DNA of 40,785 nt from an uncultured Clostridia bacterium (GCA_938044725.1 CALIOW010000091.1:1-40785), one strand, 5' to 3'. Shown: positions 7,101 to 38,888, counted from the stretch's first letter. Program-made: numbers and translations. Notes: generated by a model not told the origin, from the sequence alone.

Positions 7101-7116
7101 AATAGGGAGTGATAAA

Positions 7117-13315: not shown

Positions 13316-13338
13316 AAACGGGGCAAAAGCCCCGTTTT
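13316..13338. terminator. Bidirectional terminator between convergent genes
   Basis: AAAACGGGGC-AAAA-GCCCCGTTTT is a perfect GC-rich stem flanked by an A-run and a T-run. It sits between the stop of CDS 12338..13315 and the stop of the minus-strand kinase. Confidence 0.8.
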
Positions 13339-15073: not shown

Positions 15074-15075
15074 AG

Positions 15076-16467
15076 CTATTCTTCAACTTTCTTTCCGAGT
15101 ACGTTTTGAATATAATCTTTAGGCGTATATCCCGTATAAAGCTTAAATACTCTGAAAAAATATTTTGTGTTTTCGTAGCCGACTTTTTCGGCAATTTCAT
15201 ATATTTTATATTTGTTTTCCTTAAGCATTTCCTTTGCCTTTTCCATTCGCACCTCCAAAAGATAATCGTTATACGTTTTTCCCGTATATTGTTTGAAATT
15301 CCTTGCGAAGTATGCAGGGGAGAAAAAGACCACACGTGCTGCATCCTCTCTGGAAATGTTTTTGTTGTAATTCTTTTTGATGTACGAAACAGCCTTTTCC
15401 ATAATATCCTTTTTACTGTTTGAACCGCTTTGAATATTGTTTATTATATCAGAAAGAATATCCTCCTCCGAAACATCAAAACTGCCGCCGTAATTAAGAA
15501 GCTTAAAATAAGCAAGCGCATTGTCATTGCCCGACATTTTCACGCTTTTTATAATTCGCTTTGCTTCATCATATTTCTTTTCCGAAATGTAAGATGAGGT
15601 TATGAGAGCCTTTTCTTTAACATTAACCTCTTTGTTTTTACTTCCGATAAGCTCATACAAATCGGAAAATCCCGAATCCTTCCGCAAAACCTTAATCGGA
15701 AGCTTTAAAATATTGTTTATCCTGTCCGCAATGTTGTCATAATTTATTTTTTCATCATTCGTTCTGAAAATCAGATATTCAAAAAAACCGTTTTCTTTTC
15801 TTATGCAGTAAATATAGGCGGAATCGATAAATCCCGAAACGAGGTTGTCAATCGCCGTGTTAAGAGAATCCTTTGTATAGCCCCACTTTTTACCCAAAAA
15901 ATCGTCATAGCCCTCCAGAGATAGCTCTATAATATCGCATGGGGTTTTATCGAGCGGAAAGGGGATATGGAGCGATAGAGCGCTTTTTTCCGTTTCTTCC
16001 TTGCTTTCGGCATCACCGTAAACAAGGTTCAAAAAGAATTCTTCGATTTCCGCAGATTCGTTTCCGATAAACTGCGGACGTTTTATATGCTTTGCGTCAA
16101 GCTCTCTTAAAAAGTCCATAATAAGTTCGTCAAGCACGGAAAAATCAAACGGCTTAACAAAATATTGCCTGATTCCGGCTTCAATACCTCGTTTTGCGTA
16201 TTCAAATTCCTCATATCCGCTAATCAGAACGGATATGATTCCGAGATTATGCTTTTTTATATATTCCACAAGTTCAACACCCGAAACAAACGGCATTCTT
16301 ATATCGGTTATAAGTATGTCCGCACCTTTTTTCTTTATAATATCGAGTGCGTCTTTTCCGTCCGAAACCTCTATTATTTTCAAAATTCCATTGAATTTTT
16401 CTCTAAGGTGATTGCATAAAAAGCTTCTGGAATATTCTTCATCTTCCGCAGCAAGTAGTTTGTACAT
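15076..16467 (-). CDS. Response regulator with C-terminal AraC-type HTH (YesN-like)
   Basis: The receiver domain shows LLAAEDEE, ILITDIRMPFVSG and FVKPF. The C-terminal AraC HTH shows FSPAYFARNFKQYTGKTYNDYL...IAEKVGYENTKYFFRVFKLYTGYTPKDY. Its stop lies 2 nt before the kinase start. Confidence 0.85.
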   Translation of the reverse strand: MYKLLAAEDEEYSRSFLCNHLREKFNGILKIIEVSDGKDALDIIKKKGADILITDIRMPFVSGVELVEYIKKHNLGIISVLISGYEEFEYAKRGIEAGIRQYFVKPFDFSVLDELIMDFLRELDAKHIKRPQFIGNESAEIEEFFLNLVYGDAESKEETEKSALSLHIPFPLDKTPCDIIELSLEGYDDFLGKKWGYTKDSLNTAIDNLVSGFIDSAYIYCIRKENGFFEYLIFRTNDEKINYDNIADRINNILKLPIKVLRKDSGFSDLYELIGSKNKEVNVKEKALITSSYISEKKYDEAKRIIKSVKMSGNDNALAYFKLLNYGGSFDVSEEDILSDIINNIQSGSNSKKDIMEKAVSYIKKNYNKNISREDAARVVFFSPAYFARNFKQYTGKTYNDYLLEVRMEKAKEMLKENKYKIYEIAEKVGYENTKYFFRVFKLYTGYTPKDYIQNVLGKKVEE

Positions 16468-16498
16468 AACAAAACCTCATTTTTTCTTTCTTATTTAT

Positions 16499-16527
16499 AT
16501 TATACTGTATATTGTCAAATATTTCAA
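16499..16527 (-). promoter_or_regulatory. Putative promoter of the regulator-kinase operon: TTGAAA, 17 bp spacer, TATAAT
   Basis: The minus strand reads TTGAAA-tatttgacaatatacag-TATAAT. The -10 ends 32 nt upstream of the ATG, and a GAGG RBS lies between them. Confidence 0.45.
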
Positions 16528-16633
16528 GTATAATTTTGACGAAAAAGTATAATTTTAATACTTTTTTTATGAAATAAACGGAACAACTTACAAAACTTTA
16601 CTGTCTCTTTTGTATACGATTTCATTAAAGTTG

Positions 16634-16659
16634 TACCAAAAGTATACCAAAGTACCAAA
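16634..16659 (+). promoter_or_regulatory. Triple TACCAAA direct repeat, candidate operator for the AraC-type regulator
   Basis: TACCAAA occurs at 16634, 16645 and 16653, immediately upstream of the putative -35 of the ABC operon promoter. Confidence 0.3.
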
Positions 16660-16666
16660 TTTGAAC

Positions 16667-16695
16667 TTGTTATTTTAATGCTTTTGTGCTAAAAT
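16667..16695 (+). promoter_or_regulatory. Putative promoter of the ABC / surface-protein operon: TTGTTA, 17 bp spacer, TGcTAAAAT
   Basis: A -35-like TTGTTA, a 17-nt spacer ending in TGc, and a -10 TAAAAT. It lies 31 nt upstream of the ATG at 16726. Confidence 0.45.
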
Positions 16696-16725
16696 TATAT
16701 TATAAAGACAAAGGAGAGAGACAAA

Positions 16726-17661
16726 ATGAATGTTTTTAAGAAAAATGCGAAAAATCGAATATCGGGTAACATTAAGGATAACTGGCAGCTTTTTATACTC
16801 CAGCTTCCCGCGCTCGTTTTATTTTTTGTTTTTTGCTACATACCTATGTACGGTGTAATTATCGCCTTTAAGGAATTTAATTCCAATAAAGGTATCTGGG
16901 CAAGCCCGTGGGTCGGACTGAGGAATTTTAAATTCTTCTTCGCTTCACAGGACGCCGCAAGGCTTATAAGAAATACGGTTTTGTATAACCTCTGGTTTTT
17001 GCTTATCGGAACTTTTTTTGCGGTTTTGGTAGCGCTTATGCTCTACAACTTAAGAAGACGCTATTTGGTAAAAACTTATAATACAATAATGATTTTACCG
17101 AAATTTATGTCGATAGTCCTCATTTCATTTATAGTATACGCTCTTTTGAATCCGAGCAGCGGTATCGTAAACAATATGCTTATTTCTATGGGTAAAGAAC
17201 CTATCGACTGGTATTCAAAGCCCGAAGCATGGCCCGGAATACTTACTATTGTTCATCTGTGGCAGAATACGGGCTGGAGCTCTATTATATATTATGCGGC
17301 TCTTATGGGAATAAACCCCGAGCTTTTCGAGGCGGCGGAAATAGACGGAGCTTCCAAATATCTCCAAACGGTAAAAATCGCCGTTCCCGAAATAATGTCT
17401 TTGATAACCATTCAGGTGATTCTTGCATTGGGAAGCACATTTCAGGGAGATTTCGGACTTTTCTATCAGGTTCCCCGTAATGTTGCAACGCTGTACCCAA
17501 CAACGGATATTATTAATACATATACCTTCCGTGCACTTATGTCGGCTTCGATGTCAAAGTCGGCGGCTGTCGGTCTTATGCAGTCTGTTGTCGGAATAGT
17601 ACTGATTGTTTCCGTCAACCTGATTGTTAAGAAATTGAGCCCCGAAAACAGCTTATTCTAA
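16726..17661 (+). CDS. Carbohydrate ABC transporter permease (LplB / MalF-like)
   Basis: AAGGAGAG RBS. Six predicted TM segments. EAA loop FEAAEIDGASKYLQTVKIAVPEI. Confidence 0.85.
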   Translation: MNVFKKNAKNRISGNIKDNWQLFILQLPALVLFFVFCYIPMYGVIIAFKEFNSNKGIWASPWVGLRNFKFFFASQDAARLIRNTVLYNLWFLLIGTFFAVLVALMLYNLRRRYLVKTYNTIMILPKFMSIVLISFIVYALLNPSSGIVNNMLISMGKEPIDWYSKPEAWPGILTIVHLWQNTGWSSIIYYAALMGINPELFEAAEIDGASKYLQTVKIAVPEIMSLITIQVILALGSTFQGDFGLFYQVPRNVATLYPTTDIINTYTFRALMSASMSKSAAVGLMQSVVGIVLIVSVNLIVKKLSPENSLF

Positions 17662-17683
17662 AATAGAGAAAGAAGGTATAGAT

Positions 17684-18568
17684 ATGAAAAAGAAAAAGAA
17701 AATTTCGGCAGGACAGATTGTATTAAATGTAATATTCATTATTGTCAGTCTTTCCTTTATAATACCGCTCATACTTATGATTTCAATTTCGATTTCTTCG
17801 GAAGACGCTATAACGCAGTATGGCTATACGATACTTCCGAAGTCAATCGGATGGGACGGCTACAAAGCCGTGTTCAAAAATCCGAAACAGCTTCTTGACG
17901 CTTATAAAGTAACGATAATCTTTTCCGTTGTTGCGACATTTCTCTCCGTGCTTGTAAAAGCGCTTGCGGCATATCCGCTTTCGCGCCCCATATATAAGCT
18001 CAAAAAAGCAACAACAATGATGATGTTCTTTACAATGCTGTTTTCGGGCGGCTTGGTACCGTCATACATACTCAATACAAAATATCTTCATCTTGATAAT
18101 ACGATTTGGATTTATATTTTGCCCGCTCTCGTTTCCGCATGGGATATCTTTATAATGAGAACGTTCTTTCAGGGGCTTCCCAACGGACTTGTCGAAGCGG
18201 CAAAGATTGACGGAGCGAGCGAATACAGAGTATTCTTTACGATTGTGCTTCCGCTTTCAACTCCCGTTTTGGCTTCCTTGGGCTTTATGTATCTGATAGG
18301 CAAATGGAACGACTGGAACACAGCTCTTATATATATAAGAGATACGGAGCTTTACAGCCTGCAGTATCTGCTCCAAAGAATTTTAAGAGAAGCGGAATTT
18401 ATCAACACAATGGCAAAGACGGGCGAAAGCGCGGTAGACTTCGTACCGCCGACGGAAACAATGCGTTATGCAATGGCGGTTTTGGCGGCAGGTCCTATGA
18501 TGTTCGTATTCCCGTTTTTCCAAAAATATTTTGCACAGGGTCTTACAATAGGCTCGGTTAAAGGGTAA
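17684..18568 (+). CDS. Carbohydrate ABC transporter permease (LplC / MalG-like)
   Basis: Multi-TM protein with EAA loop VEAAKIDGASEYRVFFTIVLPLS. It follows the first permease after 22 nt. Confidence 0.85.
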   Translation: MKKKKKISAGQIVLNVIFIIVSLSFIIPLILMISISISSEDAITQYGYTILPKSIGWDGYKAVFKNPKQLLDAYKVTIIFSVVATFLSVLVKALAAYPLSRPIYKLKKATTMMMFFTMLFSGGLVPSYILNTKYLHLDNTIWIYILPALVSAWDIFIMRTFFQGLPNGLVEAAKIDGASEYRVFFTIVLPLSTPVLASLGFMYLIGKWNDWNTALIYIRDTELYSLQYLLQRILREAEFINTMAKTGESAVDFVPPTETMRYAMAVLAAGPMMFVFPFFQKYFAQGLTIGSVKG

Positions 18569-18603
18569 AAAAATAATTTATATAAAAGAAAGGAAACAAA
18601 CTT

Positions 18604-20109
18604 ATGACAAACAAAAAACAAATTTTATGCGGTATTCTTGCTTGTACAACTGCTCTTTCCATGGCAGGCTGCGGCGAGAAAAAGCAGACAGACTCGGGCA
18701 ACGGAGACATCACAATAAAATGGGTTGTTCCCGGTCCCGGCAAACAGACGGATTCGGCGGAGGTATGGCAGAAAGCAAACGAGCTTTTGAAAACCTACGA
18801 AGGCATGGAAAACGTAAGCATTGATTTGGACGTTATCCCTGCTTCCGATTATAAGCAGAAAGTTATGCTTATGCAGACAAGCGGAAATGACGTTGATATT
18901 TTTGGAACGTATACGCTTGACTTCAACGAAGAGGTTAAAAACGGCACATTCTTGGATATTACGGATATGATGAAAACATATGCTCCCGACGTGCTTAACG
19001 AAATGCCCGAATGGGCGCTCCAGCTTATGCAGGTTGACGGTAAACAGTATTGCATAACAAACTATCAGCAGATGTCCGAGCCTATGTGGGGTTACACCTT
19101 CGACAAGGACGATGCGGACGAATTTCTTGATGCGGAAGCTTTGAAAAAAGAAGCTCTTTCAAGCGATATTCTCACAAAAGGCACACTCGATATTTTCGAA
19201 AAATACATGGCAGACTTAAAATCGGCAGGCAAGTTACACTTGGGTATGCGCCCCGGTTCAACATGGGCAATGAAAGGCTATGTACCGATAGTTTCCAACT
19301 ATCTTTACAGAGCGGAAGCGGATAAAATCGTTGTTGAAGAACGCTTGGAACTCGATTCCCTCAAAATGCTTACGGAAGTATTTCACGATTGGTTTAAGAA
19401 AGGCTACATAAGAAAAGACGTTCTTTCCGCAGAGGTTTCAAAAGGCGATTATGATATATGGCACAGCCAGTATCACAAATATGCCGAAGAATCGCTTTCT
19501 AAAACAGAGGATGAACCTGTAACGCTCGTACAGTCGGAAAATCATTTCTATATCCCGACATCGGCTAACGCAGGCGGAAACGGAATAACGGCAACCTCGA
19601 AGAATCCCGAAAAAGCGCTCTCATTCTTAAATCTTATGTGCTCGTCCAAGGGTAAGGATTTATACAGAATGCTCGTTTACGGAATAGAAGACAAAAACTA
19701 TAAGAAGCTTTCCGAAGACAGAATCGAACCTATCGGCTACACAGGCTCACAGGGTACGGCAGACGCTCCTTACGGACTTTGGAAATGGACAATGGGCAAC
19801 ACGGCAAACTCCTTTGAATCCACCTCCGACCCAGAAGGCTGGAATGATTATGTATTTAATGATTGGAACAAAAACGCAGTTCCTTCGCCTATCGCAGGTA
19901 TCTATATAGACACAGCGCCTATCGAAACAGAGCTTTCACAGTGCGATTCCGTGTGTCAGGAATTTATCGACCAGCTCACAAGCGGAGCTATGACCGATTG
20001 GAAAGCAACCTACGAGGAGGCTATGAGAAAGCTTGAAATCGCAGGCAATAAGAAGGTTAAAGAATACATTCAGAAATGTGTTGACGATTTCTTGGCGACA
20101 AAAAAATAA
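18604..20109 (+). CDS. Extracellular solute-binding lipoprotein (LplA-like, about 500 aa class)
   Basis: Lipoprotein signal MTNKKQILCGILACTTALSMAGC with a lipobox Cys. The size and position after the two permeases are typical of LplA-type sugar binders. No ATPase gene is in the window. Confidence 0.8.
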   Translation: MTNKKQILCGILACTTALSMAGCGEKKQTDSGNGDITIKWVVPGPGKQTDSAEVWQKANELLKTYEGMENVSIDLDVIPASDYKQKVMLMQTSGNDVDIFGTYTLDFNEEVKNGTFLDITDMMKTYAPDVLNEMPEWALQLMQVDGKQYCITNYQQMSEPMWGYTFDKDDADEFLDAEALKKEALSSDILTKGTLDIFEKYMADLKSAGKLHLGMRPGSTWAMKGYVPIVSNYLYRAEADKIVVEERLELDSLKMLTEVFHDWFKKGYIRKDVLSAEVSKGDYDIWHSQYHKYAEESLSKTEDEPVTLVQSENHFYIPTSANAGGNGITATSKNPEKALSFLNLMCSSKGKDLYRMLVYGIEDKNYKKLSEDRIEPIGYTGSQGTADAPYGLWKWTMGNTANSFESTSDPEGWNDYVFNDWNKNAVPSPIAGIYIDTAPIETELSQCDSVCQEFIDQLTSGAMTDWKATYEEAMRKLEIAGNKKVKEYIQKCVDDFLATKK

Positions 20110-20134: not shown

Positions 20135-23100
20135 ATGAAAAAAAGAATTTTTTCAATCCTTGTTTCCCTTTTGATGATTACATCTCTGGTCGGCATAGCA
20201 AATGCGGAAACACAAGCGGCAGACGGTCAAATTCATCATATCGATTTGACAAATTACTTTAACAGCGATTCAATCGCCTCGGAGGGTGATACACTCGGTG
20301 CGTCATGGAACGGCGGCAATGCAAGTAAGTACGGCTTTCCCGCATCGTTATTCACAGCGGCGGACGGCTATGTAACTTTCGGTGGAAGAAATGCTGTAAA
20401 AACAGATCCGAACGGTAAGATTGAAACAAGCAATATGACCGTTTCAGACAATCAGGCGGATAATTTCAAATTCTATATTCCGCAGGCAGGACTTGCGGGC
20501 GGAGTTAACGACAGCGTTTATCAGGCGGCAAATGAAGAAAAAACTTATACATTAAATGACGCAAGCAAAATAAACAAAATCAAATTTGCGCTTCATATGT
20601 TTAGCGACGCAAATATAACGGCAACAGTTAATTATTCCGACGGAACATCTGATTCATATGCACAGTGGTTTCAGGGTTCTGCAAGAAATGCGGATTCAAA
20701 CAAAGTTGTTTGGAGTATATATAACAATTTAAGATGCTTCGGCTGGAAATGGACAACAAGCAGTATAAAACCTAATGCAGATGGAACTGCTGAAAAAGCG
20801 ACGGACGGCGGAACAGATTACTATTGGGGAATAAGAGGTTACGAGATTCCCGTTGACGTATCAAAAGCTCCTGTTTCTTTTACTCTTAAAGCAACTAATC
20901 CTATTTCGCTTTTCGCACTTGCGGAATGCGAAATCACAAATGCAGAGCTTACGGCACAGCTTGCTTTGGTAAGAGCATACGAGGGCGGAGCGTATACTGC
21001 GGAGCAAATCAAAAATATTGTGCTCGCAAATTCTTATGCCGATATTCTTGTACAAAGAGGAACGATTACGGAGGAAAACGTTTCCGATATAAGAGCCTTG
21101 CTTGAAAGAGCAAATAAACAAAAAGCTCTTGCAGAAATTCATTATATTAATATTACTGATACATTTGATTCAAGTACAATCGGTTCCTTTGGCGAAACGC
21201 CTAACGCTGATACATGGTTCCGAGGCATGACGGATAAATTAAGCGATAATTCATTTAACGGTATGCAAGCAGGCGCTTTCGGTAATTCCGATTTTGTAAG
21301 TTTTGAGGAATGGGCAAACCGTGCAAAAACGGGAAATACAATTCTTGCATATATGCCTATGTCAACAAGAACGGCAACAGCGCTTGATTCGCACTATATC
21401 CCTGTTTCAAACGGTGAATTTACGGTTCCGCTTGATTCGGTTAATACGCAGGCTGTAAACTTCGTTTTAAACACGGGCGACGCACAGACATTTAAGGCGG
21501 AGGTTAAATATTCCGACAACACAACCGACAATTACTCTTTCGGCATACAGTCCTACGGCACAGTTTCAAGTCAAGCAACGACAGGCTATGATAACCTTGT
21601 AGGTTTAAAAGGCTTGTGGTGGAGATTTGCTAAAATTGATAAAGACGGTAAATTAGCAGATACGGATACAACTAACCGTTCGGTTGGTATAACAATGTTC
21701 GGTGTTAAAACCGACAAAACCAAAACACCTGTAAGCATAACGTTTACAAATACACACGGCTCAATGCCCGTATTTATGTATGCTGTTACACAGGTTCCCG
21801 TATATTCCACTGAAATGCTTGAAAATATAGAAACTGCAAAAGGATTGAACGCAAAAGAAGGTTTGCTTACAGCAGACGAAATCACAGCGGTAACGGAAGC
21901 AAAGGCTTATGCGGACGTTCTACTTTCGGCAGGTATAGGTTCTGAAGCTGACTACGCATTTTTGACAGCCTTGCTTGAAAAGGCAAACAAACAAAAGGCG
22001 CTCTCCGAAGTATCACATTTTGATATTTCAAAAGACTATAATGCCGACACAATCGGTGGTGTGGGCGAAACGGCAGGAGACACATGGTTTGACGGCTTTA
22101 CGGGCTTTAACGGAAACTTTAACGGCTTTAATAAAACTGCGTTTGGAACAAAAGAATACTTTGATGCAACAGTATATGAATTGAATTCTGATGGAAATAA
22201 ACAGCAGACAGGCACAATTTCCGTTTATATTCCTAACGTAGGAAGAAGCGCGGGCGAAGTTGATTCCGCAGCTTTGTGGAAAGATAAAACTCTTACGGTT
22301 GACCTTAACGACGTTCCGACCCAAACAATTCGTTATTTGGCTAATAACACGGAAACTACCGTGAAAGCGACTGTCTATTATAAAGACGGAACAACAGAGG
22401 AAAAATTAATAGGCGGTACAAATTTTGCTTCAACGTATTACAGCACAAAGTTTGTTGACGGCGCATATCTCTGGTTAGGCGGATTTGTTCATAAAGAAAA
22501 TAACGGCGTTCTTACTGCAAAAAGCGGTACTGTGGGTATAATGGTCTACAATGTTGCGGTAGATGCAGCAAAAATTGCAGATAAAGTTGTGTTCTCTGTT
22601 GCAAGTGATACAAAGCCCGTATATTTCTACAGCGTTTCGCAGGTTCCCGTATCATACGAAACTATGAAAGCGGCTTTAGACGCAGGACTTAGCGGCGTAT
22701 ACACGGACGAAGACGAAGCGACAGCTAACAAGCTTGCAAACTATAAAGCGGTTTTGACAGATGCCGGCGCAATAGCAAGCACAGCGTATCCTATGGTAGA
22801 AAATTACATTAAGCAGGCAAATTCACAGAAAAACACATATGTTGACCTCACAAGTTACCTCAATGACGATATAATGGTTAAGTTAGGCGATTCCTATGCG
22901 GGAATTACACTCGGAAGAACGACAGAGCTTTTTGACGGCGAGAAAATACCGACAGACGGAATGATTACGATGTTACCTCCGTCAGACCCGACACAGATGA
23001 GCGATGAAACAGGCAGAACTTATAAATTAAGCGGAGCATATAACGGCAAGGGCAACGATTCCGTTCTTATCAAAAAAGAAGATAACAGCGGCGTAACAAT

Positions 23101-23971
23101 CGCTGTACCACAGGCTAACGGTAAGGTTAAAGGTATGGGCGTTATTTTGGAAACAAACGGCGGCAATGACGGTACGGCTGTTTTGGTTGACGCAACGGTT
23201 AATTATTCCGACAATACTTCGGAGGATATAAAGGTATATCTCCAGAGATCGCATGGCTTTAACACGGCTAAAATGGCAGCACATTCAAAAGATTTCGGCA
23301 GACTTGTTATAAATTCCGACAATACGGTTGCAAATCACGAGAAATGGCCGAATGTAGATAGGGTAAGCTTCTATTCTTCAAATATCGAATTTAATTTGGA
23401 TAAAACCGTTTCTTCGATAACCTTTAAGCCTTGCACTTCTGACGATTATCACATCGTTGCAATGACGGAATACGTTTATACAAATACAGAACTTTGGGAT
23501 TTTGTTAATGCTATGTCGGCAAATGACATAAGCGGAATTACAAAGGAAAATGCAGATGAAACAATCAAGGGCTGTGAAGCCGTTATCGAGCTTTATAACC
23601 GCGGATTTACTGCTGATATCCAAGAAGAAGACTGCAGCAGCTACACGCAGATGTTAAACTATGCAAAAGCTCTTAAGGCAGATGAAGCTTCTGTTGATAT
23701 CAATGTTACAATCGCAGAAGACGGCAATAATATGAAAGCAACGGCAGCAATGTCAAACACAACGGCAAATGCACAGGATTACGTTATAGTAATTGCGGCA
23801 TATAAAGCTAATAAGCTTGTCGGTCTTAATATTTCCGCACAGGGAACATTGCAATCAGGCGACATAAACAAAACAGACAGCGTATCGCTTGAAAAAATAG
23901 AGGGTGCGCAGTACAAAGCTTTCGTTTGGGAAAGCATGTCAAGCTTAAAGCCTATCTATAAGGCAAACTAA
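20135..23971 (+). CDS. Secreted 1278-aa protein built from four copies of an unassigned module plus a C-terminal beta-sandwich-like domain
   Basis: AGGAG RBS. Sec signal MKKRIFSILVSLLMITSLVGIANA. Four collinear modules start near 20225, 21137, 22007 and 22834. No catalytic motif was recognised. Confidence 0.85.
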   Translation: MKKRIFSILVSLLMITSLVGIANAETQAADGQIHHIDLTNYFNSDSIASEGDTLGASWNGGNASKYGFPASLFTAADGYVTFGGRNAVKTDPNGKIETSNMTVSDNQADNFKFYIPQAGLAGGVNDSVYQAANEEKTYTLNDASKINKIKFALHMFSDANITATVNYSDGTSDSYAQWFQGSARNADSNKVVWSIYNNLRCFGWKWTTSSIKPNADGTAEKATDGGTDYYWGIRGYEIPVDVSKAPVSFTLKATNPISLFALAECEITNAELTAQLALVRAYEGGAYTAEQIKNIVLANSYADILVQRGTITEENVSDIRALLERANKQKALAEIHYINITDTFDSSTIGSFGETPNADTWFRGMTDKLSDNSFNGMQAGAFGNSDFVSFEEWANRAKTGNTILAYMPMSTRTATALDSHYIPVSNGEFTVPLDSVNTQAVNFVLNTGDAQTFKAEVKYSDNTTDNYSFGIQSYGTVSSQATTGYDNLVGLKGLWWRFAKIDKDGKLADTDTTNRSVGITMFGVKTDKTKTPVSITFTNTHGSMPVFMYAVTQVPVYSTEMLENIETAKGLNAKEGLLTADEITAVTEAKAYADVLLSAGIGSEADYAFLTALLEKANKQKALSEVSHFDISKDYNADTIGGVGETAGDTWFDGFTGFNGNFNGFNKTAFGTKEYFDATVYELNSDGNKQQTGTISVYIPNVGRSAGEVDSAALWKDKTLTVDLNDVPTQTIRYLANNTETTVKATVYYKDGTTEEKLIGGTNFASTYYSTKFVDGAYLWLGGFVHKENNGVLTAKSGTVGIMVYNVAVDAAKIADKVVFSVASDTKPVYFYSVSQVPVSYETMKAALDAGLSGVYTDEDEATANKLANYKAVLTDAGAIASTAYPMVENYIKQANSQKNTYVDLTSYLNDDIMVKLGDSYAGITLGRTTELFDGEKIPTDGMITMLPPSDPTQMSDETGRTYKLSGAYNGKGNDSVLIKKEDNSGVTIAVPQANGKVKGMGVILETNGGNDGTAVLVDATVNYSDNTSEDIKVYLQRSHGFNTAKMAAHSKDFGRLVINSDNTVANHEKWPNVDRVSFYSSNIEFNLDKTVSSITFKPCTSDDYHIVAMTEYVYTNTELWDFVNAMSANDISGITKENADETIKGCEAVIELYNRGFTADIQEEDCSSYTQMLNYAKALKADEASVDINVTIAEDGNNMKATAAMSNTTANAQDYVIVIAAYKANKLVGLNISAQGTLQSGDINKTDSVSLEKIEGAQYKAFVWESMSSLKPIYKAN

Positions 23972-23981
23972 TAAAAATTTT

Positions 23982-24013
23982 CATACGGCGGAGGGTTTTC
24001 CTCCGCCCGTATG
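23982..24013 (+). terminator. GC-rich hairpin between the two module proteins (weak terminator or mRNA-stability element)
   Basis: CATACGGCGGAGG-GTTTT-CCTCCGCCCGTATG, about 13 bp with one bulge. No U-tract follows (ACCCGAATTTG), so termination is probably partial at most. Confidence 0.35.
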
Positions 24014-24084
24014 ACCCGAATTTGAAAACAAAGGATTTTATCCTATTATATAGATAATCATAATAATATTACGGAGGAAAAACC

Positions 24085-27000
24085 ATGAAAAAAACACTAT
24101 CCTTACTGCTTGCATTTATGCTTATTGCGATACTTCCCGTAAGCGCACAGAGTGTATCATTAAGCGACAGACTTAATTACAACGCAATTTTTGATACTGA
24201 TGTTGTGCCGAGAGCAACGGAGTTTCCGGCGGTTATTTATTCCGCAAGCGCATTTTCCGATACTCTTACGCTCGGAAATCTCGATTATTCCGTTACGGAG
24301 GGACATTCCGGAAAAGAAAACGACAGTATAAAATTAACCGATACGTATAATTTTGCTTTGGAAGAAGCGCCGTACAAAAAAATCGGATTTATTGCGTATG
24401 CGCTTAATTCCGATACGCTTACAAACGTAAAGATAGTTTATAAAAGCGGAGATACGGAAACCTTCCCGATTACCGTAAAGACAGCTTCCAAACAAGCGGA
24501 TCTATCCGTTTCGGCAGGTATGGGGCTTAAAAAAGGCGGTACGGGTATGCGCCCCAAGGCAGAGGTAGGCGAAACGGAGCTTTTCATAAATGCGTATGAA
24601 ATGTCGCCGTCCAAAACAACAAGCATTTCGGCTGTTGAATTTCCCGCTTCCGACTGTGTTTTATTCGCGGTATCGGCTCTTAAGTATACGCAGGAGGAGC
24701 TTGACAATCTTTCAGACCGTGTTATAGAAGAAACCTTAGCGCAGTATAAAGACAAAACCTTAACGGATATAACGGACGCAGATACGGATTCTTTGGAATC
24801 TCTCTATAATGCGCTTCTCACCGCACAGGAAAACGGCAGCGCGATTGCAACCGATGAAGTTATAGAAAAAATCAAAAACTTAAAAGACGGCTATCCGCTT
24901 TATTCAAAGAAAAAAGAAATATGCACATATTTTAACGATACATATGCGGTGCGTGATTACAGAACGCTTGCTGTTTCCGATCTTTCAGACAGCGATATAA
25001 CGGTTATAGATACGCTTATTTCAAAATATACCGAAGCGCAAAGCTTTGATAATGAACGCTATGCGGAAATACTTTCATATTTTAATATGACGGACGATTA
25101 TACATGGAATTTATCCGATAAAGAAACGCTTACAAACTTAAAAACAGCGTATGAGCGCAAAAAATATGAGGAAGAATTAACCTCAAAAATCAATTCGGCT
25201 TATGCGCCTTATAAGGATAAAACCGTTTCCGACCTTGCTGAGTCCGATATTGCAAAATTGCAGGAGCTTGTTGCGCTTTATGAAGAGGCAAAGCGTGAGA
25301 ATGTGCCTTACAATGCGGACGACAGAGCGAAGATAGAAAAACTTCTCAATACATATTCGGCATATTTGAATTCCGAAAATGACGAATGTTACGACCTTAA
25401 AAATTACTATACGGGCAGTATTGTAGGTAATGCGGGCGATACCTCAAAAGCATGGGGCTTTCCCGACGGCTCGGGCTATGTCGGCTATTCGTCGGAAACA
25501 TTTGAAAGCTTTTTGACAGATGGATATTTTTTGGCAAAAAATCAGTTTAACATTATGAAAGAAATTGAGTCCGTACCGAAATTGACAGAGCAAAATCTTG
25601 CAAAAGCCATTAAATTTAAAATGAGCGATGAAAGAACAGCTTCGGGCAAAAACGCAATACTTTTCGGTTCAAAGGAAGATAAAGAACACGGACTTATTAC
25701 GAGCGTGAATATCTCCGCGCCGAAGCGTGTTTCGTCGCAGATTATGTTTTTATATCCTGCAGCAAGGTCTAATTACAGCTCGGATATTGTTATTAATTTT
25801 ACCGACGGCACAACCATGACGCAGAAATACGGCATTGGCTGGTGTAATTGGGGGTCGCATACGGGTATGTATCAAAGCACGAAATATAGCAGAAATAATG
25901 ATGTTATATCTGAAGCTGCAACGGATAACCCGTCGCTTTTGTGCCGAGGTCTTGTTCTCGATATTCCCAAGGGCAAGATTATAGAAAGCATAGACGTTGC
26001 GCAGACGCAAGGAGCGCTTTTGGCAATAACTGAGGTTCCGCTTTTAAATGCTGATTTTACCGAGCTTGTAAAAGAACAGTGGGCAAAGGTTGAAGCAATT
26101 GATACGGCAAATGTAACGAATGACCAACTTGCCGATGTAAAAACCATGGTTCTATATATGGCGGAATGTGAAAAAAGAGGTCTTGATATAGCTGATTTCG
26201 TATCGGATACCGCTAAAATGAACGAATTTAAGCAAATGATTCTTACGGTATCGCACACCGTTTACAGACAATCAAAGAATGAAGTCCGTGCCGACTTTGA
26301 ATTTTCCGTTCCCGTAAATGCAAGCGATATAAATAAAAACATAACGGTTTTGAAAAACGGTATGGAAACAGCGGATTATTCCGTATCGCTTTCAAACGGC
26401 GGAAAATCACTTTCGCTTATATTAGCAGAAAGCAAAAACGGCGGAAATGAATATAAAATAACCTTATCCGGCAATCTTTCGCTGGAGCTTTTCCCGAAAA
26501 TCAAACTCGGAAGTGATTACACGGTTTCATATGACGTTCCCGATTATCTTACATATTCGTATAACGGCGCGGAATTTACAATAAAAAACAATTCAAAAGA
26601 AGAAGCGAGCGGCTTTGTCGGTGTTTCCTGCTTAAGCGCGGACAATAAAACAATGTATTATTCCGCATTGAAGGAATATACGGTTTCGGCAGGAGTTGAA
26701 GTGAAAATTTCCTGCGATACCTCGAATTATTCACAGCTTGCGCCAAATACAAAAACTGTTTTGTGGGACGAAAACATGAAAACGGTTTCAAACGGAAGCG
26801 AAATATCGGCTTGCACCGATGAGCCTGTTTTGACCGCAAATTACAGCGAGCCTGCGTTTTCCATGAAGGACAACAGCATAAAATTAAACGGTATAACTCC
26901 GTCGGCAAGTGAAAATAAAGCTGTAAGCCTTAAAATTACGGACGAAAGCGGAAATGTAATTTTCACAGGAAGTCAGCTTACGGCAAAATCGGGATATTTC

Positions 27001-28392
27001 AATTTTGAATTTATTTTGCCCGATTATATGTATCAAAACTCAATGACGCTTACGTTTACTTTGGGCGGAGATGATTTTGAAACGCCGCAAACGCTTTCAA
27101 ATACGATCTACTACTATGCGCCCGGCGACAGAAGCAATTTCATAGCCGAGCTTAAAGCTTCGAGTGAATCCGAAATAACGGCGAAAATCCCCGACGTCAA
27201 GAAAAATCTTGCAATTGCGATTGCACCTGCGGACGTGATTTCCGATGCGGACTATGCGAAAATGATATTTAATAACAAGGCTTTGCTTTTGGAAAATGAC
27301 CCTGCAAAAACACAGGGAAACCTCAAAAAGCTTGCGATTATAACGGCATTTTGGGGCGATAACGCAAATATACTTATGAACGGAAGCGAGCTTTTATATA
27401 ATGATTTAATGAATTTCAGCTCGATTGATTCGGACGGCGTAACGCTTTATTCGATATTAAAGAGCGGTATATCCGAAGAAGGCATAAAGCATTTCCAAGA
27501 TGAAGTTTTCGGCAAAAAATACGCAAACGAAAACGAACTTATGAAAAAAATAACGGAGGAAATATTCCTGTCGGCGATTAACTATCCCTCTACGGGCGGT
27601 ACGGGCTATATAGGAACGCTTCTGACGGCAAAAAATGCTTCCAAGGTAGAAATCACCATAACAAAATATCTGAACGCGCCTACATATGATTTTAATAACA
27701 AAATAGCGGCGCAAAGAGGAAACTTCAAGACGCTTTTGGAAGTTGAGAAATTTATTTCTTCATACAAAAAGCCCGAAAACGGTTCGTCCGGCGGCAGTTC
27801 GGGAGGCGGAGGCGGTTCATCGTTCTCATCGTCGATAACGGAAGAACCTGCACCTGCACCAACTCCCGCACCGAGCCTTACGTTTAACGATGTTCCGACA
27901 TCGCATTGGGCATATGCAAGCATTATTTCACTTTATAATAAGGGAATAATTTCGGGCAAGGGAGATAAAACTTTCGCACCCGACGATACGATAACGAGAG
28001 GCGAGCTTGTAAAAATGCTTTGCAAGGCTTACGGCTTTACGGCAAGCAGAAACGACGTATTCTCCGATACGGCGGATAAATGGTACAACGAATTTGCGTG
28101 TGCCGCATATGAAAACGGAATTATAACGGGAATAAGCGAAAGCGAATTTGGCGGCGATGCGAACGTTACAAGACAAGACATCTGCACAATGCTTTACAGA
28201 ACGGTTAATGCCGAGGTTTCGGGCGAGCTTGAGTTTGCAGATTCCAACAGCGTTTCCGACTATGCGAAATCGGCAGTGCTTTATATGGCGCAAAACGGCA
28301 TAATAAACGGATTTTCCGATAATACGTTCAGAGCGGCGGAATATTGCACAAGAGCGCAGGCGGCAAAGATAATAGATATGTTTTTGAAATAA
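24085..28392 (+). CDS. Secreted 1435-aa SLH-anchored protein with two copies of the same unassigned module, Ig-like domains, a Gly/Ser-Pro/Ala linker and three C-terminal SLH domains
   Basis: GGAGG RBS. Signal MKKTLSLLLAFMLIAILPVSA. Modules start near 24151 and 25381. The linker is SSGGSSGGGGGSS...EEPAPAPTPAPS. SLH repeats: FNDVPTSHWAYASIISLYNKGIISG, FSDTADKWYNEFACAAYENGIITG and FADSNSVSDYAKSAVLYMAQNGIINGF. Confidence 0.85.
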   Translation: MKKTLSLLLAFMLIAILPVSAQSVSLSDRLNYNAIFDTDVVPRATEFPAVIYSASAFSDTLTLGNLDYSVTEGHSGKENDSIKLTDTYNFALEEAPYKKIGFIAYALNSDTLTNVKIVYKSGDTETFPITVKTASKQADLSVSAGMGLKKGGTGMRPKAEVGETELFINAYEMSPSKTTSISAVEFPASDCVLFAVSALKYTQEELDNLSDRVIEETLAQYKDKTLTDITDADTDSLESLYNALLTAQENGSAIATDEVIEKIKNLKDGYPLYSKKKEICTYFNDTYAVRDYRTLAVSDLSDSDITVIDTLISKYTEAQSFDNERYAEILSYFNMTDDYTWNLSDKETLTNLKTAYERKKYEEELTSKINSAYAPYKDKTVSDLAESDIAKLQELVALYEEAKRENVPYNADDRAKIEKLLNTYSAYLNSENDECYDLKNYYTGSIVGNAGDTSKAWGFPDGSGYVGYSSETFESFLTDGYFLAKNQFNIMKEIESVPKLTEQNLAKAIKFKMSDERTASGKNAILFGSKEDKEHGLITSVNISAPKRVSSQIMFLYPAARSNYSSDIVINFTDGTTMTQKYGIGWCNWGSHTGMYQSTKYSRNNDVISEAATDNPSLLCRGLVLDIPKGKIIESIDVAQTQGALLAITEVPLLNADFTELVKEQWAKVEAIDTANVTNDQLADVKTMVLYMAECEKRGLDIADFVSDTAKMNEFKQMILTVSHTVYRQSKNEVRADFEFSVPVNASDINKNITVLKNGMETADYSVSLSNGGKSLSLILAESKNGGNEYKITLSGNLSLELFPKIKLGSDYTVSYDVPDYLTYSYNGAEFTIKNNSKEEASGFVGVSCLSADNKTMYYSALKEYTVSAGVEVKISCDTSNYSQLAPNTKTVLWDENMKTVSNGSEISACTDEPVLTANYSEPAFSMKDNSIKLNGITPSASENKAVSLKITDESGNVIFTGSQLTAKSGYFNFEFILPDYMYQNSMTLTFTLGGDDFETPQTLSNTIYYYAPGDRSNFIAELKASSESEITAKIPDVKKNLAIAIAPADVISDADYAKMIFNNKALLLENDPAKTQGNLKKLAIITAFWGDNANILMNGSELLYNDLMNFSSIDSDGVTLYSILKSGISEEGIKHFQDEVFGKKYANENELMKKITEEIFLSAINYPSTGGTGYIGTLLTAKNASKVEITITKYLNAPTYDFNNKIAAQRGNFKTLLEVEKFISSYKKPENGSSGGSSGGGGGSSFSSSITEEPAPAPTPAPSLTFNDVPTSHWAYASIISLYNKGIISGKGDKTFAPDDTITRGELVKMLCKAYGFTASRNDVFSDTADKWYNEFACAAYENGIITGISESEFGGDANVTRQDICTMLYRTVNAEVSGELEFADSNSVSDYAKSAVLYMAQNGIINGFSDNTFRAAEYCTRAQAAKIIDMFLK

Positions 28393-28416: not shown

Positions 28417-31284
28417 ATGAAAAAGATACTAACAATACTTATTTCGGCAGTTATGCTTGTTTCTTTGATTCCGCAGGCTTTTGCGTATTCCGACACAACG
28501 GATAAGCCGATTGAGATTATATCGGGTCTCGGACTTATGAACGGCTATGACGACGGTACGTTTCTTCCCGATAACACAATGTCCCGTGCGGAATTTGCAC
28601 AGGTTATAGCAAACATTTACGAATCGGGCGACGATGCCGAAGCGGCTTGGAAAGAGCAGTTTTTCAAGGACGAGAACGAAGAAACCTCGCTTGTAACGAA
28701 ATTTTCGGAGGGCGAAAAAGAGATTTTCTCCGACGTTCCGTCATCACATTGGGCATTTAACGTTATAAATACCGTTTACGGTCTCGGACTTATGACCGGC
28801 GTTTCCGAAACGGAATTCGACCCCGAAAGTACGATTACCGTTGACCAGGCATATAAGGTTATGATTTGCCTGCTCGGTTACCGTCCCAAGGCTATCGTAA
28901 AAGGCGGCTATCCTGCCGGCTACAGAAGAACAGCGGTTGAGCTCGGGCTTTCAAGCGGTATAAAAAGCACAGACAAAATTACAAGAGGCGACGTTGCAAG
29001 AATGCTTTATAACGCGCTTGACGAGGAAATTTTGCAGATAACCTCAATAGGCAATACGATCGGCTACGAAACAATTCCCGGCGATACGTTTTCCAAAAAA
29101 ATCCTCGGCTACGATACTGCCGAGGGCAGAATGACCGATAACGGACTTACCGACCTTATGGGGGCGTCCTCACAGTATAAGGAAACCGTAACGGTGAATG
29201 ACGTTTCTGTTCGCCTTACCGATGATACGCAGTATATACGTAATTTTATCGGACGTGACGTAAAGATATTTTATAAGGAAAATGAAAAAGTAAACTATGC
29301 GGTATACGCATATCTTACCGACAGAGATGAAGTAACTTCATTTGAAATTTCTGATTTTTCGTCCTACAAAAACAATACTCTGACATATACGCAGGGCAAA
29401 TCAAAGACACAAAAGACAGTTAAGCTTGAAAACGGAGCAGGAATGATTTTAAACGGCACAGGCGTAGGCTCATATGATGAAAATACGTTTAAAAGCATAA
29501 ACAAAGGAACGGTAACGGTTATTAAACCTTTTGGAAAAAGCGCTTCAGACCTTATTCTTTTGGAATCATATACAAGCTTTTATGTTGATTTAAAGGATAA
29601 CAACGATAAAAAGCTTTACAGTATTTCCACACTTGTGGATAATAAATGTATCGATTTATCCAATGAAGAAAAAAGCATTTATATATACGATGCAAACGGC
29701 GATTTAACAACCTTTGACGCCATAACCACGGATATGGTTTTGAGCGTTTCCGAAAGCGAAAAAGTGTTAAAGCTTTATATCGGAAACGGCGCAAAAGCTG
29801 ACGCAACCGTTACGGAAATAAGCGAATCGGGCGGAAATACATATATAACGTGCGGAAACGATAAATATGTGCTTTCAAAGGATTATATAGAGCTTAAGGG
29901 AACGAATGAAATAAAAGCCGGAACAAAATATACGCTTTATATTGATAAATTCGGCGAAATTATAAATGCAAAACCGGCAAAAAAGGAAAACATAACTGCC
30001 GCAATTATAATAGGCGCAAAAACCTTCGGTACATTTGGTGAGGATTCAAAGATAAAATATTTCAACGAAGACAGCGAAATGAAAGAAAGCTATCTTGCGG
30101 ACAGCGTAAAAATTAAAAACGAAAACGGCATAGAAACCACATATAAAGAAGCAAGCGACGCGATCAGCGTCATAAGCTCATACAGCGGTGTGGCACGTAT
30201 CGGACTTAATGAAGAAAAGGAAGTAAACTACGTTGAGCTTGCAGGTATTCAGACTACATTCGGCAATGAGGAAAACCGACTTGTAAGAATAAAGCTTTCG
30301 GACACTGTTTCACCGACGCAAAAGGTAACTTCCTATTATAAGATTAATCAGGGCTTCGGCGGTAAAGCTGTTGTAGGAAGCAATACAAAGGTATTCAAGT
30401 ATAACCCCGAAACGATGGACGACGACTCTTTTTCGATTAATACCGTGGGAATATTCGCAAACGATAACAGATATGACGTTTATGCTTATACAACAACGGC
30501 AGATTCAAAGCTTGCGGAATATATAGTGTATGAAAGTGCGGCAAAAAATTTGCTCACACCGTCAAACAAGGATTTTGCACTTGTAAAGGATATTTATAAA
30601 GGCGTTACGGCAAAGGGCGACAGCATGAACATACTTGAAATATATTTTAACGGAAACGATATGACAAAGGTTTACTGTGAGGATTCCGTACTCGAAGACG
30701 TAAGAGATATATGGGACAGAGATAAAATTGACGATAATTCACCCAAGTATAAGGTCGAAAAAGGAGATATTATCCGTTATACGACAAATTCCGATGAAAC
30801 CTTAAAGAATATAGTTCTTATATTTGATGAAAACGCCGTAAATCCCCATTCGGGCGGACAGGGAAATCTGGCAGGCTCAATCGGTTATTTTGATTCAAGC
30901 GATTATACCCATTCAAATCCGTATGCGCAGACTGTTTCGGGCTTCAATTCAAATGCGCTTTACTGGACGGCAGAGGAGCTCAGAAATATGGTTTGCTATC
31001 CCTTGATTCAGCGTTCGGGACAGCTTACCGTTACCACTATGGACTTAACTAAGCTTCCGTATTCGGAGGACGAAATCGGAACGAAATACGCAACGGAAAC
31101 ATATACCGCAAACAGCAATGTTGTACTTTTCAGAATTGACGGCGATACAATCACACGTGAAACAATAAGCCCCTCTGAAATAAAAACGTACGAAAAAGCG
31201 GGGAGCGATTGCGATAGACTGTTCTATTCAACACGTGTCGGACAAACGCAGATGACATTTGCAATAAGAGGATATACAAAATAG
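28417..31284 (+). CDS. Secreted 955-aa protein with N-terminal SLH domains and an uncharacterised beta-rich C-terminal region
   Basis: AGGAG RBS. Signal MKKILTILISAVMLVSLIPQAFA. SLH repeats: ISGLGLMNGYDDGTFLPDNTMSRAEFAQVIANIY, FSDVPSSHWAFNVINTVYGLGLMTG and GYRRTAVELGLSSG...TRGDVARMLYNAL. The remainder has no motif I recognise. Confidence 0.8.
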   Translation: MKKILTILISAVMLVSLIPQAFAYSDTTDKPIEIISGLGLMNGYDDGTFLPDNTMSRAEFAQVIANIYESGDDAEAAWKEQFFKDENEETSLVTKFSEGEKEIFSDVPSSHWAFNVINTVYGLGLMTGVSETEFDPESTITVDQAYKVMICLLGYRPKAIVKGGYPAGYRRTAVELGLSSGIKSTDKITRGDVARMLYNALDEEILQITSIGNTIGYETIPGDTFSKKILGYDTAEGRMTDNGLTDLMGASSQYKETVTVNDVSVRLTDDTQYIRNFIGRDVKIFYKENEKVNYAVYAYLTDRDEVTSFEISDFSSYKNNTLTYTQGKSKTQKTVKLENGAGMILNGTGVGSYDENTFKSINKGTVTVIKPFGKSASDLILLESYTSFYVDLKDNNDKKLYSISTLVDNKCIDLSNEEKSIYIYDANGDLTTFDAITTDMVLSVSESEKVLKLYIGNGAKADATVTEISESGGNTYITCGNDKYVLSKDYIELKGTNEIKAGTKYTLYIDKFGEIINAKPAKKENITAAIIIGAKTFGTFGEDSKIKYFNEDSEMKESYLADSVKIKNENGIETTYKEASDAISVISSYSGVARIGLNEEKEVNYVELAGIQTTFGNEENRLVRIKLSDTVSPTQKVTSYYKINQGFGGKAVVGSNTKVFKYNPETMDDDSFSINTVGIFANDNRYDVYAYTTTADSKLAEYIVYESAAKNLLTPSNKDFALVKDIYKGVTAKGDSMNILEIYFNGNDMTKVYCEDSVLEDVRDIWDRDKIDDNSPKYKVEKGDIIRYTTNSDETLKNIVLIFDENAVNPHSGGQGNLAGSIGYFDSSDYTHSNPYAQTVSGFNSNALYWTAEELRNMVCYPLIQRSGQLTVTTMDLTKLPYSEDEIGTKYATETYTANSNVVLFRIDGDTITRETISPSEIKTYEKAGSDCDRLFYSTRVGQTQMTFAIRGYTK

Positions 31285-38500: not shown

Positions 38501-38888
38501 TGCAAACGGAAGAATAATTTCTCAAACATATGATTACGGTACGGTTGAAACCTCTGCGGTAACATTCTATAAGGATTCCGCCGAAATTTCGGCAGAAGAG
38601 CTCTCGGCGCACAAGGGAGAAACGCTTACGGCAAAATTAAACGTGAATAACCGTATAAGCATAGATACGAATGCTTATGCTTCAATAGGCTCGTATAAAT
38701 CGGGAAAGCTTATAGATGTTACTTTTGATAAGGTAACGCTTCTTAAAAACAGCGTAAACGAAGTAACAATAAGCTTCAAAGTGCCTGATGATTTTGACGA
38801 AAATACGACCGCCGAATTTATGCTTTTGGACGGAAAAACAGTTTTAAAACCGCTTTCGCTAAAGCGTATAATAAAAGAAATAGAGTAG
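35586..38888 (+). CDS. Secreted 1100-aa beta-helix protein (paralogue of CDS 31301) with FN3-like and Ig-like C-terminal domains
   Basis: Signal MSKTIRLAAVLLAAVMILGGGFNCFA. DUF1565-like start NGNDETGDGTQSSPFATLGKARDYI. Signatures VGEYVIDTKNKVMYCILP, DDGGAIYYGRSNTKYGNDISYNYIHHL and LYADDGYGGINMHHNVM. It carries the C-terminal domain shared with CDS 1..4122 and CDS 20135. Confidence 0.85.
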   Translation: MSKTIRLAAVLLAAVMILGGGFNCFAQSETLNIYVSANGNDETGDGTQSSPFATLGKARDYIRTLSKDSGITVNIGAGEYYVNSSVSFSSQDSGNENCIVTYKADDGAVFKNTKKINTDEFKKVTSPEILKRLKKEVRGEAYYLDLGSYCIPTVKTAFILDGEKFEFSRYPKDSLLKAANDASDKTFSVSDSRVNEWAKSEDMFVKGSLSSTYSWEKADVSDISGGSVTVSRNVINDAEIYFNNVLEEMSAVGEYVIDTKNKVMYCILPEDYKGKTAEITAGSLNSPFINLNGAEYIKFDGLNFYGLSNNAVYMTNCKNISVENCSFNFINADYAIRIVTGKNINVYSNGAYKCSGGFVRFSGGNRVTLESGNINIEKNVILNCATDLNSCIISSGVNSPTDTVDAIGNTVKNNIIGDSSPTNAISAVGIYNKVSNNEIYNVSRQIDDGGAIYYGRSNTKYGNDISYNYIHHLNKAHMFSALYADDGYGGINMHHNVMYSMSHPIHIGMGMNNKFDNNMYIDVDKGIRAQTRMTWGDAYANFGDLYQETYNLMEKTIMKELYAAAFPDLKVSVTRKPFFAPYNSQITGNVSFGNVNALYEVPTHLYYSDETAQILTISDEANVAGIENALATNANNRTYVNELKAYGAKVTASDGTDLNATADGNPRFDYDSAYFKNASAQDFTLTSAFSSSVSTVNEINMSEIGNITASENKLLTPAEKINIYAVQNGKKIDITYGTNPSVSQYRILVSADSGFSNTVFDKTVYEDNMTFALETDELPYGTYYIKAIGTGLSKQSQFTVQSDVITFTHEDKTEKAYKNALSLLEDEIKKAQSGDYVYSDESIITELEAKKAYLTENAQSISKSDEETAIYDLLIRAQAERNTLKPEINKCTADTSDSNVYVEASGFHANSLVTVLVTNPNTDKNTFANGNKDIVRYTNVLSADHNGCVSFDFDTKINDIDYLGTYTVYLADANGRIISQTYDYGTVETSAVTFYKDSAEISAEELSAHKGETLTAKLNVNNRISIDTNAYASIGSYKSGKLIDVTFDKVTLLKNSVNEVTISFKVPDDFDENTTAEFMLLDGKTVLKPLSLKRIIKEIE

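Follow-up and report, generated by a model that had tools for sequence, protein, structure and literature searches.

Repeated non-catalytic beta-sandwich modules on S-layer-anchored proteins are already familiar. The fold of AziU2 and AziU3 was reportedly presented as new in a 2022 JACS abstract, and the two proteins are said to form a cytoplasmic heterodimeric biosynthetic enzyme with a carrier-protein-bound substrate. AziU3/AziU2 comes from Streptomyces sahachiroi and forms aziridines (Kurosawa et al., 2022, JACS, cited in PMC9570651). Here we analyse a 40,785-nucleotide (nt) stretch of DNA from an uncultured gut Clostridia bacterium (GCA_938044725.1 CALIOW010000091.1:1-40785; the whole stretch is called the window), in which two adjacent genes for large secreted proteins, p1 and p2, encode six copies of a composite module. 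The predicted structure of its beta core, a beta-sandwich of ~225 aa, places this module in the AziU2/AziU3 fold superfamily, and we regard it as a new, unnamed domain family there. Our proposal, made from sequence and with about even confidence, is that the modules have no catalytic role and serve a glycan-degrading apparatus of the cell surface as binding units that capture complex plant polysaccharide.

Six copies of one module in two adjacent proteins

The two proteins that carry the modules, and the wall anchor of the second, are as follows.

20135..23971, + strand: p1, a 1278-amino acid (aa) secreted protein with the signal peptide MKKRIFSILVSLLMITSLVGIANA, four modules and a C-terminal ~100-aa domain
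24085..28392, + strand: p2, a 1435-aa secreted protein with two modules, a middle region without family assignment and three C-terminal S-layer homology (SLH) domains
27880..28374, + strand: the three SLH domains of p2, a cell-wall anchor (Pfam PF00395, E 3.4e-35)

Each module consists of a beta core of ~185-240 aa and then a conserved three-helix unit of ~50-65 aa. A non-circular test was made with a hidden Markov model (HMM) built from 103 modules of other proteins, each less than 35% identical to any window copy. Applied to all open reading frames (ORFs) of the window, this independent HMM found exactly six modules, four in p1 and two in p2, and no further module in any other ORF.

20228..20953, + strand: A1 beta core, p1 aa 32-273 (independent HMM E 8e-42)
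21131..21820, + strand: A2 beta core, the copy used for modelling, p1 aa 333-562 (independent HMM E 1.3e-36)
22004..22669, + strand: A3 beta core, p1 aa 624-845 (independent HMM E 1.2e-34)
22820..23494, + strand: A4 beta core, a distinct subtype, p1 aa 896-1120 (independent HMM E 1.1e-38)
24163..24708, + strand: B1 shortened beta core, p2 aa 27-208 (independent HMM aa 56-206, E 1.1e-14, profile positions 70-232)
25366..26058, + strand: B2 beta core, p2 aa 428-658 (independent HMM E 7.7e-30)

B1 is a compact variant that keeps the opening strand and is missing ~50 residues between this strand and the ND motif; against the A2 HMM it covered profile positions 5-227. MAFFT aligned 6/6 copies, with the common motifs D-L-x-x-Y-x-N-x-D-x-I...G-D at the opening, N-D-S, V-x-Y-x-D-G-T, K-x-x-x-S-I-T-F and a closing A-V-T-x-V-P. 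A half-domain profile from a distant branch of the superfamily, the soil branch described below, also detected 6/6 window copies (E 5e-5 to 9e-9). Across 109 modules, the near-invariant positions in module numbering are D7, N13, D15, G21, D86, Y127, D129, G130, T131, K198 and S202.

Modules inside one protein are highly divergent (20-30% identity). In pairwise Smith-Waterman comparisons, with z-scores taken against 100 shuffles, z was 29.5 for A1-A2, 26.9 for A2-A3, 14.7 for A1-A3, 11.2 for A1-B2 and 8.1 for A1-A4; for B1 it reached only ~4, and several module pairs were individually non-significant. A default BLASTP self-comparison of p1 detected no internal repeats, so that Smith-Waterman with shuffles and HMMs were required.

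An earlier reading of this DNA, made from the sequence only, had placed four copies in the coding sequence that begins at 20135 and two in the one that begins at 24085; the independent HMM finds exactly these, and the start positions given then lie within 3-15 nt of the HMM-derived boundaries. That the six segments align as one family, a check set beforehand, is agreed on by the independent HMM, MAFFT and the soil-branch profile. The description of the unit as a beta core plus a helical spacer is borne out by the linker HMM and the AlphaFold helices presented below. Its phrase "wall-anchored scaffold" fits p2 with its three SLH domains and does not fit p1, in which no SLH, LPXTG or other anchor motif was found and for which the Pfam and NCBIfam scans were empty. 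In p2 these two libraries gave no match outside the C-terminal SLH region.

Predicted fold and remote relatives

AlphaFold2 predicted the A2 core, from an alignment of 19 sequences, as an all-beta structure of ~15 strands with a predicted local distance difference test score (pLDDT) of 86 and a predicted template modelling score (pTM) of 0.86. The A2 core with its spacer (26 sequences) was predicted with pLDDT 90.6 and pTM 0.87. With both models, Foldseek ranked four chains of AziU3/AziU2 (7WUW_A/B, 8GS1_A/C) first in the PDB, and these are the only meaningful structural neighbours. They had E values of 1.5e-5 and 2.5e-6, ~230 aligned columns, ~10% identity and a target-normalised template modelling score (TM) of 0.57-0.65 (0.60-0.65 with E 2.5e-6), which is moderate, not high. 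All other PDB matches had a TM below ~0.45, mostly 0.15-0.3; these low-TM matches were concanavalin-type lectins, CBM6, CBM16, CBM27, the beta-domains of agarase and fructofuranosidase, Cry toxins and tailspikes. A viral structure library gave only weak matches to tail fibres and receptor-binding proteins (TM <0.35), which we rejected as uninformative.

The sequence family is large. A word-indexed search with whole p1 returned 12 clusters only, and a search of GTDB species genomes with p1 found no related locus. An exhaustive profile search of 1.84 billion representatives returned 744 proteins with E <= 1e-3, 248 with E <= 1e-10 and 39 with E <= 1e-30. One to five full-length modules are present in ~60 of the best 150 proteins. 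When 30 full-module proteins were scanned for other domains, SLH was found in 8/30 and GDSL/CE2 esterase, Beta_helix and Big_2 in 2/30 each; most had nothing else. We also observed giant repeat proteins of 2000-4000 aa (P0050, P0059, P0062, P0063, P0072 and others) with 10-37 short matches at profile positions ~120-160. These matches are a shared Rib-like V-x-Y-x-D-G-T strand and not the whole domain.

For a second, larger branch (proteins P0070-P0184), which we call the soil branch, the initial match was confined to the C-terminal half of the profile. The proteins of this branch are called "hypothetical protein" wherever they are named, except for one fragment called alpha-mannosidase, and where a source is given, in a few cases, it is a metagenome-assembled genome (MAG) of Acidobacteriota, Terriglobales or Steroidobacteraceae. 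Two to six copies of the soil-branch domain occur per protein, in fusions with fn3, chitobiase-C, GH28, pectate-lyase-like, peptidase S8, sedolisin, arylsulfotransferase and beta-propeller domains. The consensus of this ~180-aa domain reads ...N..GI..DG..F..GG.DG.G.AYS...TFTV.YTDGT..TFTQS.SDW...YGY...KTV.SITLP....

The full ~180-aa soil-branch profile (A6) matched the window family over the whole module (hhalign probability 98.2%, E 4.8e-14), and it matched AziU2 (7WUW_A, 8GS1_A) with E 1.7e-7 over 160 residues, at profile positions 18-178. This chain of profiles is a transitive link, which supports a probable remote homology of the module to AziU2/U3. The link surfaced only with soil-branch profiles; the PDB sequence search with the window-family alignment found nothing, its best match having a non-significant E of 0.22.

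We compared the module with the families in Pfam, NCBIfam, PDB sequence profiles and PDB structures, which covers the CAZy/dbCAN models only through their Pfam or PDB counterparts. No Pfam or NCBIfam match on the modules was found to named carbohydrate-binding module (CBM) families (CBM_6, CBM_4_9, CBM_35, F5_F8_type_C, malectin and others), nor did Ig-like, Rib, Big or fn3 models of these two libraries match p1 or p2 at domain length. No Pfam model covers the module domain in any family member or in the AziU2 fragment, and on distant members NCBIfam gave motif-level VCBS, Rib and YPDG matches only. A Rib-like identity was rejected, the matches to PDB 6s5y and 8yke being limited to the motif (E 0.1-0.6, ~40 residues). 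By the libraries searched, the module is outside the named CBM, Ig, Rib, fn3 and cohesin families. The sequence-only reading had likewise matched it to no CBM or Ig family, which agrees with the empty Pfam and NCBIfam scans, the PDB sequence result and the poor superposition of lectin and CBM folds; no adhesin or DUF (domain of unknown function) model matched it either. The module is nevertheless not an orphan: by fold and profile chain it probably belongs to a large superfamily whose solved member is AziU2/AziU3.

Because the only characterised homologue is an enzyme, according to the article that cites its description (Kurosawa et al., 2022, JACS, via PMC9570651), the modules could themselves be AziU3/AziU2-like enzymes that, for example, eliminate or transfer a glycan substituent such as a sulfate or an ester. 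The near-invariance of several Asp, Asn, Tyr and Lys positions would suit this. However, tandem arrays of two to five highly divergent copies, together with many unrelated catalytic fusions, are unusual for catalytic domains, and AziU2 lacks the K198 of the module family, having a Gly at this place in the profile alignment. The motifs shared with AziU2 (DN, Y-D-G and S-D-F/W) lie in strands and turns and look structural. The reported setting of AziU2/U3, a cytoplasmic heterodimer with a carrier-bound substrate, is also very different. We consider catalytic modules highly improbable.

Helical spacers and variation between strains

A linker HMM built from 95 independent linkers recognised the segments that follow the cores as given here.

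20954..21130, + strand: helical spacer after A1, p1 aa 274-332 (linker HMM aa 264-329, E 5.6e-20)
21821..22003, + strand: helical spacer after A2, p1 aa 563-623 (linker HMM E 2e-20), with three helices in the AlphaFold2 model
22670..22819, + strand: helical spacer after A3, p1 aa 846-895 (linker HMM E 8.8e-19)
23495..23968, + strand: degenerate linker after A4 (aa ~1116-1175; linker HMM E 2.6e-4), then the C-terminal domain of p1
24709..25365, + strand: long helical spacer of ~220 aa between B1 and B2, p2 aa 209-427, with weak linker-like units (linker HMM E 0.007 to 0.6)
26059..26274, + strand: helical spacer after B2 (linker HMM aa 650-704, E 1.8e-5)

In the model of the A2 core with its spacer, the spacer helices span model residues 226-239, 248-266 and 272-290 with pLDDT >90. 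At E <= 1, Pfam gave noise only on five spacers, the p1 C-terminus, the p2 middle region and the AziU2 fragment; the five spacers had no match to FIVAR or GA-type helical surface families.

Among close orthologues of p1 (P0002-P0009, P0013), the A4-type module is 93-96% identical and always last, whereas at positions 1-3 modules have been exchanged, duplicated or lost in p1 proteins that are nearly identical in all other parts. The arrays include A1-A3-A3'-A4, A3''-A2-A3'-A4 and A3''-A3''-A3'-A4, plus three-module forms. The A4 type is also the best match to the last module of the distant proteins P0010, P0011, P0012 and P0037. Swapping of modules 1-3 while the rest is conserved is as expected of exposed ligand-recognition units. 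It also qualifies an earlier claim about the age of the array. The copies had been called divergent at the DNA level, and indeed their similarity is confined to stretches of 20-61 nt at 63-81% identity; the accompanying statement that the expansion is old and maintained holds only in part, as modules 1-3 are still reshuffled between strains.

The same features could be those of a passive stalk or surface coat, in which cores and helices serve as spacers or as a protective, antigenically variable layer with no specific ligand. Cores and rigid spacers alternate regularly, with a core-to-core gap of 50-69 aa in 117/125 module pairs across the family, few surface-type residues are conserved, and strain-level shuffling of modules is typical also of variable surface antigens and of phage-receptor evasion. 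Against this, a beta-sandwich of 225 aa is large for a spacer, the soil-branch domain is found at enzyme termini and not between anchor and catalytic domain, and the connection with genes for glycan utilisation and with beta-helix enzymes has been conserved. A stalk or coat seems unlikely to us, if less so than catalysis.

A conserved cassette of p1, p2, p3 and p4

Five large secreted proteins, p1-p5, come after ABC importer genes on the + strand. The three downstream of p2 are listed here.

28417..31284, + strand: p3, a 955-aa protein with two N-terminal SLH domains (E 3.1e-19), otherwise without family
31301..35563, + strand: p4, a parallel beta-helix with an N-terminal Cu_amine_oxidN1 domain and a weak match to GH141_M (GH141 insertion domain)
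35586..38888, + strand: p5, a parallel beta-helix paralogue of p4 without Cu_amine_oxidN1, which p4 alone has

p4 and p5 are 29% identical across ~900 aa, and both match a solved "parallel beta-helix repeat protein", PDB 9RX2 (E 1.4e-4 and 7.6e-15, respectively); a literature search for this entry found no paper mentioning it. We presume that p4 and p5 are the catalytic partners of the cassette. A region of p2 just before the SLH domains (aa 1096-1196; 27370-27672) resembles the C-terminus of p4 (aa 1277-1380; 35129-35440), with 24% identity and E 2.9e-4. The p2-like proteins of the three loci L044, L072 and L073 likewise match the p4 C-terminus. The shared ~100-aa region may be a common interaction module or a wall-proximal one.

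These three loci, from other Clostridia, have p1 relatives of 23-25% identity and keep the gene order of the window.

L072 (3929-17954): AraC, GH95, a four-module protein, a 1484-aa SLH protein, a 996-aa SLH protein, a 667-aa ORF and, at the locus end, a Cu_amine_oxidN1/GH141_M protein
L073 (10001-24629): AraC, a five-module protein, a 1425-aa SLH protein, a 996-aa SLH protein and a Cu_amine_oxidN1/beta-helix protein
L044 (12995-20567; a paralogous locus): ABC permease, a two-to-three-module protein and a two-module p2-like protein, where the locus ends

BLASTP supported orthology of the p2-like proteins (28-32% identity), of the p3-like proteins (33%; L072 and L073) and of the p4-like protein (37%; L073). 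The p2-like proteins all share one layout, a short module, a long spacer and a full module, and in all three loci this spacer is the same long type as between B1 and B2. Gene order and orthology that are kept at 23-37% identity indicate that p1-p2-p3-p4 is a conserved functional cassette and not a chance neighbourhood.

Given this co-inherited cassette and the anchorless p1, cohesin-like docking is a serious rival to glycan capture. The modules would then bind proteins, and p1 and p2 would dock p3, p4, p5 or other secreted enzymes into a surface enzyme complex of non-cellulosomal type, each divergent module having its own partner. Joint inheritance of p1, p2, p3 and p4 across deep divergence would fit such a scaffold, and so would a secreted multi-module protein beside an SLH-anchored module bearer, a layout that mirrors primary and anchoring scaffoldins. 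The low identity of modules within one protein, the need of p1 to associate with something, and the resemblance between p2 and the p4 C-terminus, here and in the three other loci, point the same way. On the other side, no Cohesin or Dockerin_1 model matched p1-p5, p3-p5 show no evident short shared docking module, and the soil-branch domain is fused straight to enzymes, which is a better fit to substrate targeting. On balance we regard a protein-binding scaffold as rather unlikely, though it is the strongest competitor among the explanations weighed here.

Surrounding genes

The window looks like DNA of a Gram-positive bacterium of low GC (~40%), and its gene content has the appearance of a glycan-utilisation locus, with GH38, a GH5/35-like ORF, GH43, two metallophosphoesterases, regulators and an ABC importer.

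13337..20109: on the - strand a sensor histidine kinase with an AraC-type response regulator, on the + strand two ABC permeases with a solute-binding protein of the DUF3502 type (all by Pfam)

Between the upstream genes and p1-p3, terminator-like sites did not exceed their frequency in shuffled sequence, as would fit a co-transcription of the importer genes and p1-p3. Placed by its ABC permease, the window is closest, among species-level genomes, to a MAG of an uncultured Oscillospiraceae (84% and 78% identity); uncultured Clostridia MAGs come next, Candidatus Ornithomonoglobus among them.

Three further observations concern the upstream part. The large 1252-aa ORF at 364-4122 has sub-threshold Big_5 and CopC matches only, and no module copy. 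As called, the ORF of the GH38 alpha-mannosidase (4455-7100) and the ORF after it (6988-8325), which has weak matches to GH5/GH35, share 113 nt, and the second of these genes probably starts further downstream than called. At 8382-9532, between the GH5/35-like ORF and the GH43 gene, two short adjoining ORFs resemble a glycyl-radical enzyme, with matches limited to its middle (PFL-like, profile 397-587) and its end (Gly_radical); the pair looks like a truncated or frameshifted remnant.

Proposed function

The module is extracellular, variable in copy number, fused to or adjoining unrelated catalytic domains, linked to SLH and present in sugar loci, and for these reasons we read it as an accessory domain. 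Soil-branch copies are appended to GH28, pectate-lyase-like, chitobiase-C, peptidase S8, sedolisin and beta-propeller domains, a promiscuity typical of binding modules. From context we infer a glycan as the ligand; multivalent binding and the lack of a catalytic role are inferred likewise. The beta-helix (GH141-like) enzymes, GH43, GH95 (in L072), the DUF3502-type protein and the Monoglobales-like relatives give a loose hint that this glycan may be a pectic or fucosylated one of plants.

In the surface apparatus that we propose for polysaccharide capture, p1 would be the protein with many modules, either soluble or associated, p2 would hold its two modules on an SLH anchor and p3 would be a further SLH-anchored component, with p4 and p5 as the beta-helix enzymes. 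The apparatus would be co-expressed with the sugar ABC importer. Rigid three-helix spacers would keep several divergent beta cores apart, and these cores could jointly capture complex, possibly pectic, plant polysaccharide at the cell surface, from where it would pass to the neighbouring enzymes and the transporter.

Several results weigh against this proposal. The sole characterised relative in the superfamily is an enzyme, not a lectin, and the surface retention of p1 lacks a recognisable anchor. The direct comparison of the window-family profile with the AziU2 fragment was non-significant (probability 1.5%, E 0.035), so that homology to AziU2/U3 rests on the intermediate soil-branch profile and the fold match. 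Lectins, CBM6, CBM16 and CBM27 were matched by Foldseek with E of 1e-4 to 5e-3 but with TM of only 0.15-0.45 and a root-mean-square deviation of 9-18 A. Only two aromatic columns are conserved across the 109 modules, leaving no obvious conserved sugar platform, and the near-invariant residues may be structural or may form a metal site.

A more far-reaching version of the glycan-capture proposal is put forward tentatively. The beta core could establish a new CBM family with the AziU2/AziU3 fold, and the cassette a previously unrecognised, cellulosome-independent surface machine of uncultured gut Oscillospiraceae and Clostridia, with strain-variable arrays that set glycan specificity or else act as a new docking system of cohesin-like kind. 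We think this possible, but doubtful.

If the module does bind glycans, it would constitute a new CBM family whose fold has until now been observed in a single natural-product enzyme, and at least 744 representative "hypothetical" proteins of gut Clostridia and soil bacteria would gain a name and a testable role. The cassette offers a clonable model of polysaccharide capture at the S-layer in Gram-positive gut bacteria without cellulosomes, and the module swapping between strains suggests how specificity for a substrate or a partner could change rapidly. Should the modules form a scaffold or a stalk instead, the result would be a useful annotation and no surprise.

Comparison with known systems

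Each subunit of AziU2/AziU3 (Azi28; PDB 7WUW, 8GS1) has the size of one beta core (~200 aa), and the DN...Y-D-G...S-D-F/W motif register is common to AziU2/AziU3 and the superfamily profile. By contrast, AziU2 and AziU3 are single copies with no signal peptide, helical spacer or tandem repetition.

The Rib and alpha-like surface repeats of Gram-positive bacteria have the V-x-Y-x-D-G-T strand-turn motif in common with the module. They differ in that Rib is an Ig-like fold of ~80 aa, and the match is at motif level only.

Cellulosomal scaffoldins resemble the locus in that tandem divergent beta-sandwich modules adjoin an SLH-anchored protein with the same module and an enzyme cluster. The module protein, however, is without cohesin or dockerin signatures, and its linkers are three-helix units rather than Pro/Thr-rich.

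Beta-sandwich CBMs and legume-type lectins (CBM6, CBM16, CBM27 and concanavalin A) are, like the module, all-beta sandwiches of similar size that are repeated, are attached to or encoded beside glycan-degrading enzymes, and occur on Gram-positive SLH-anchored proteins. The module differs from them in having no HMM match to these families, low Foldseek TM and no conserved aromatic platform. The libraries searched describe neither this fold in such modules, nor the composite unit of beta core and three helices, nor the four-gene cassette.

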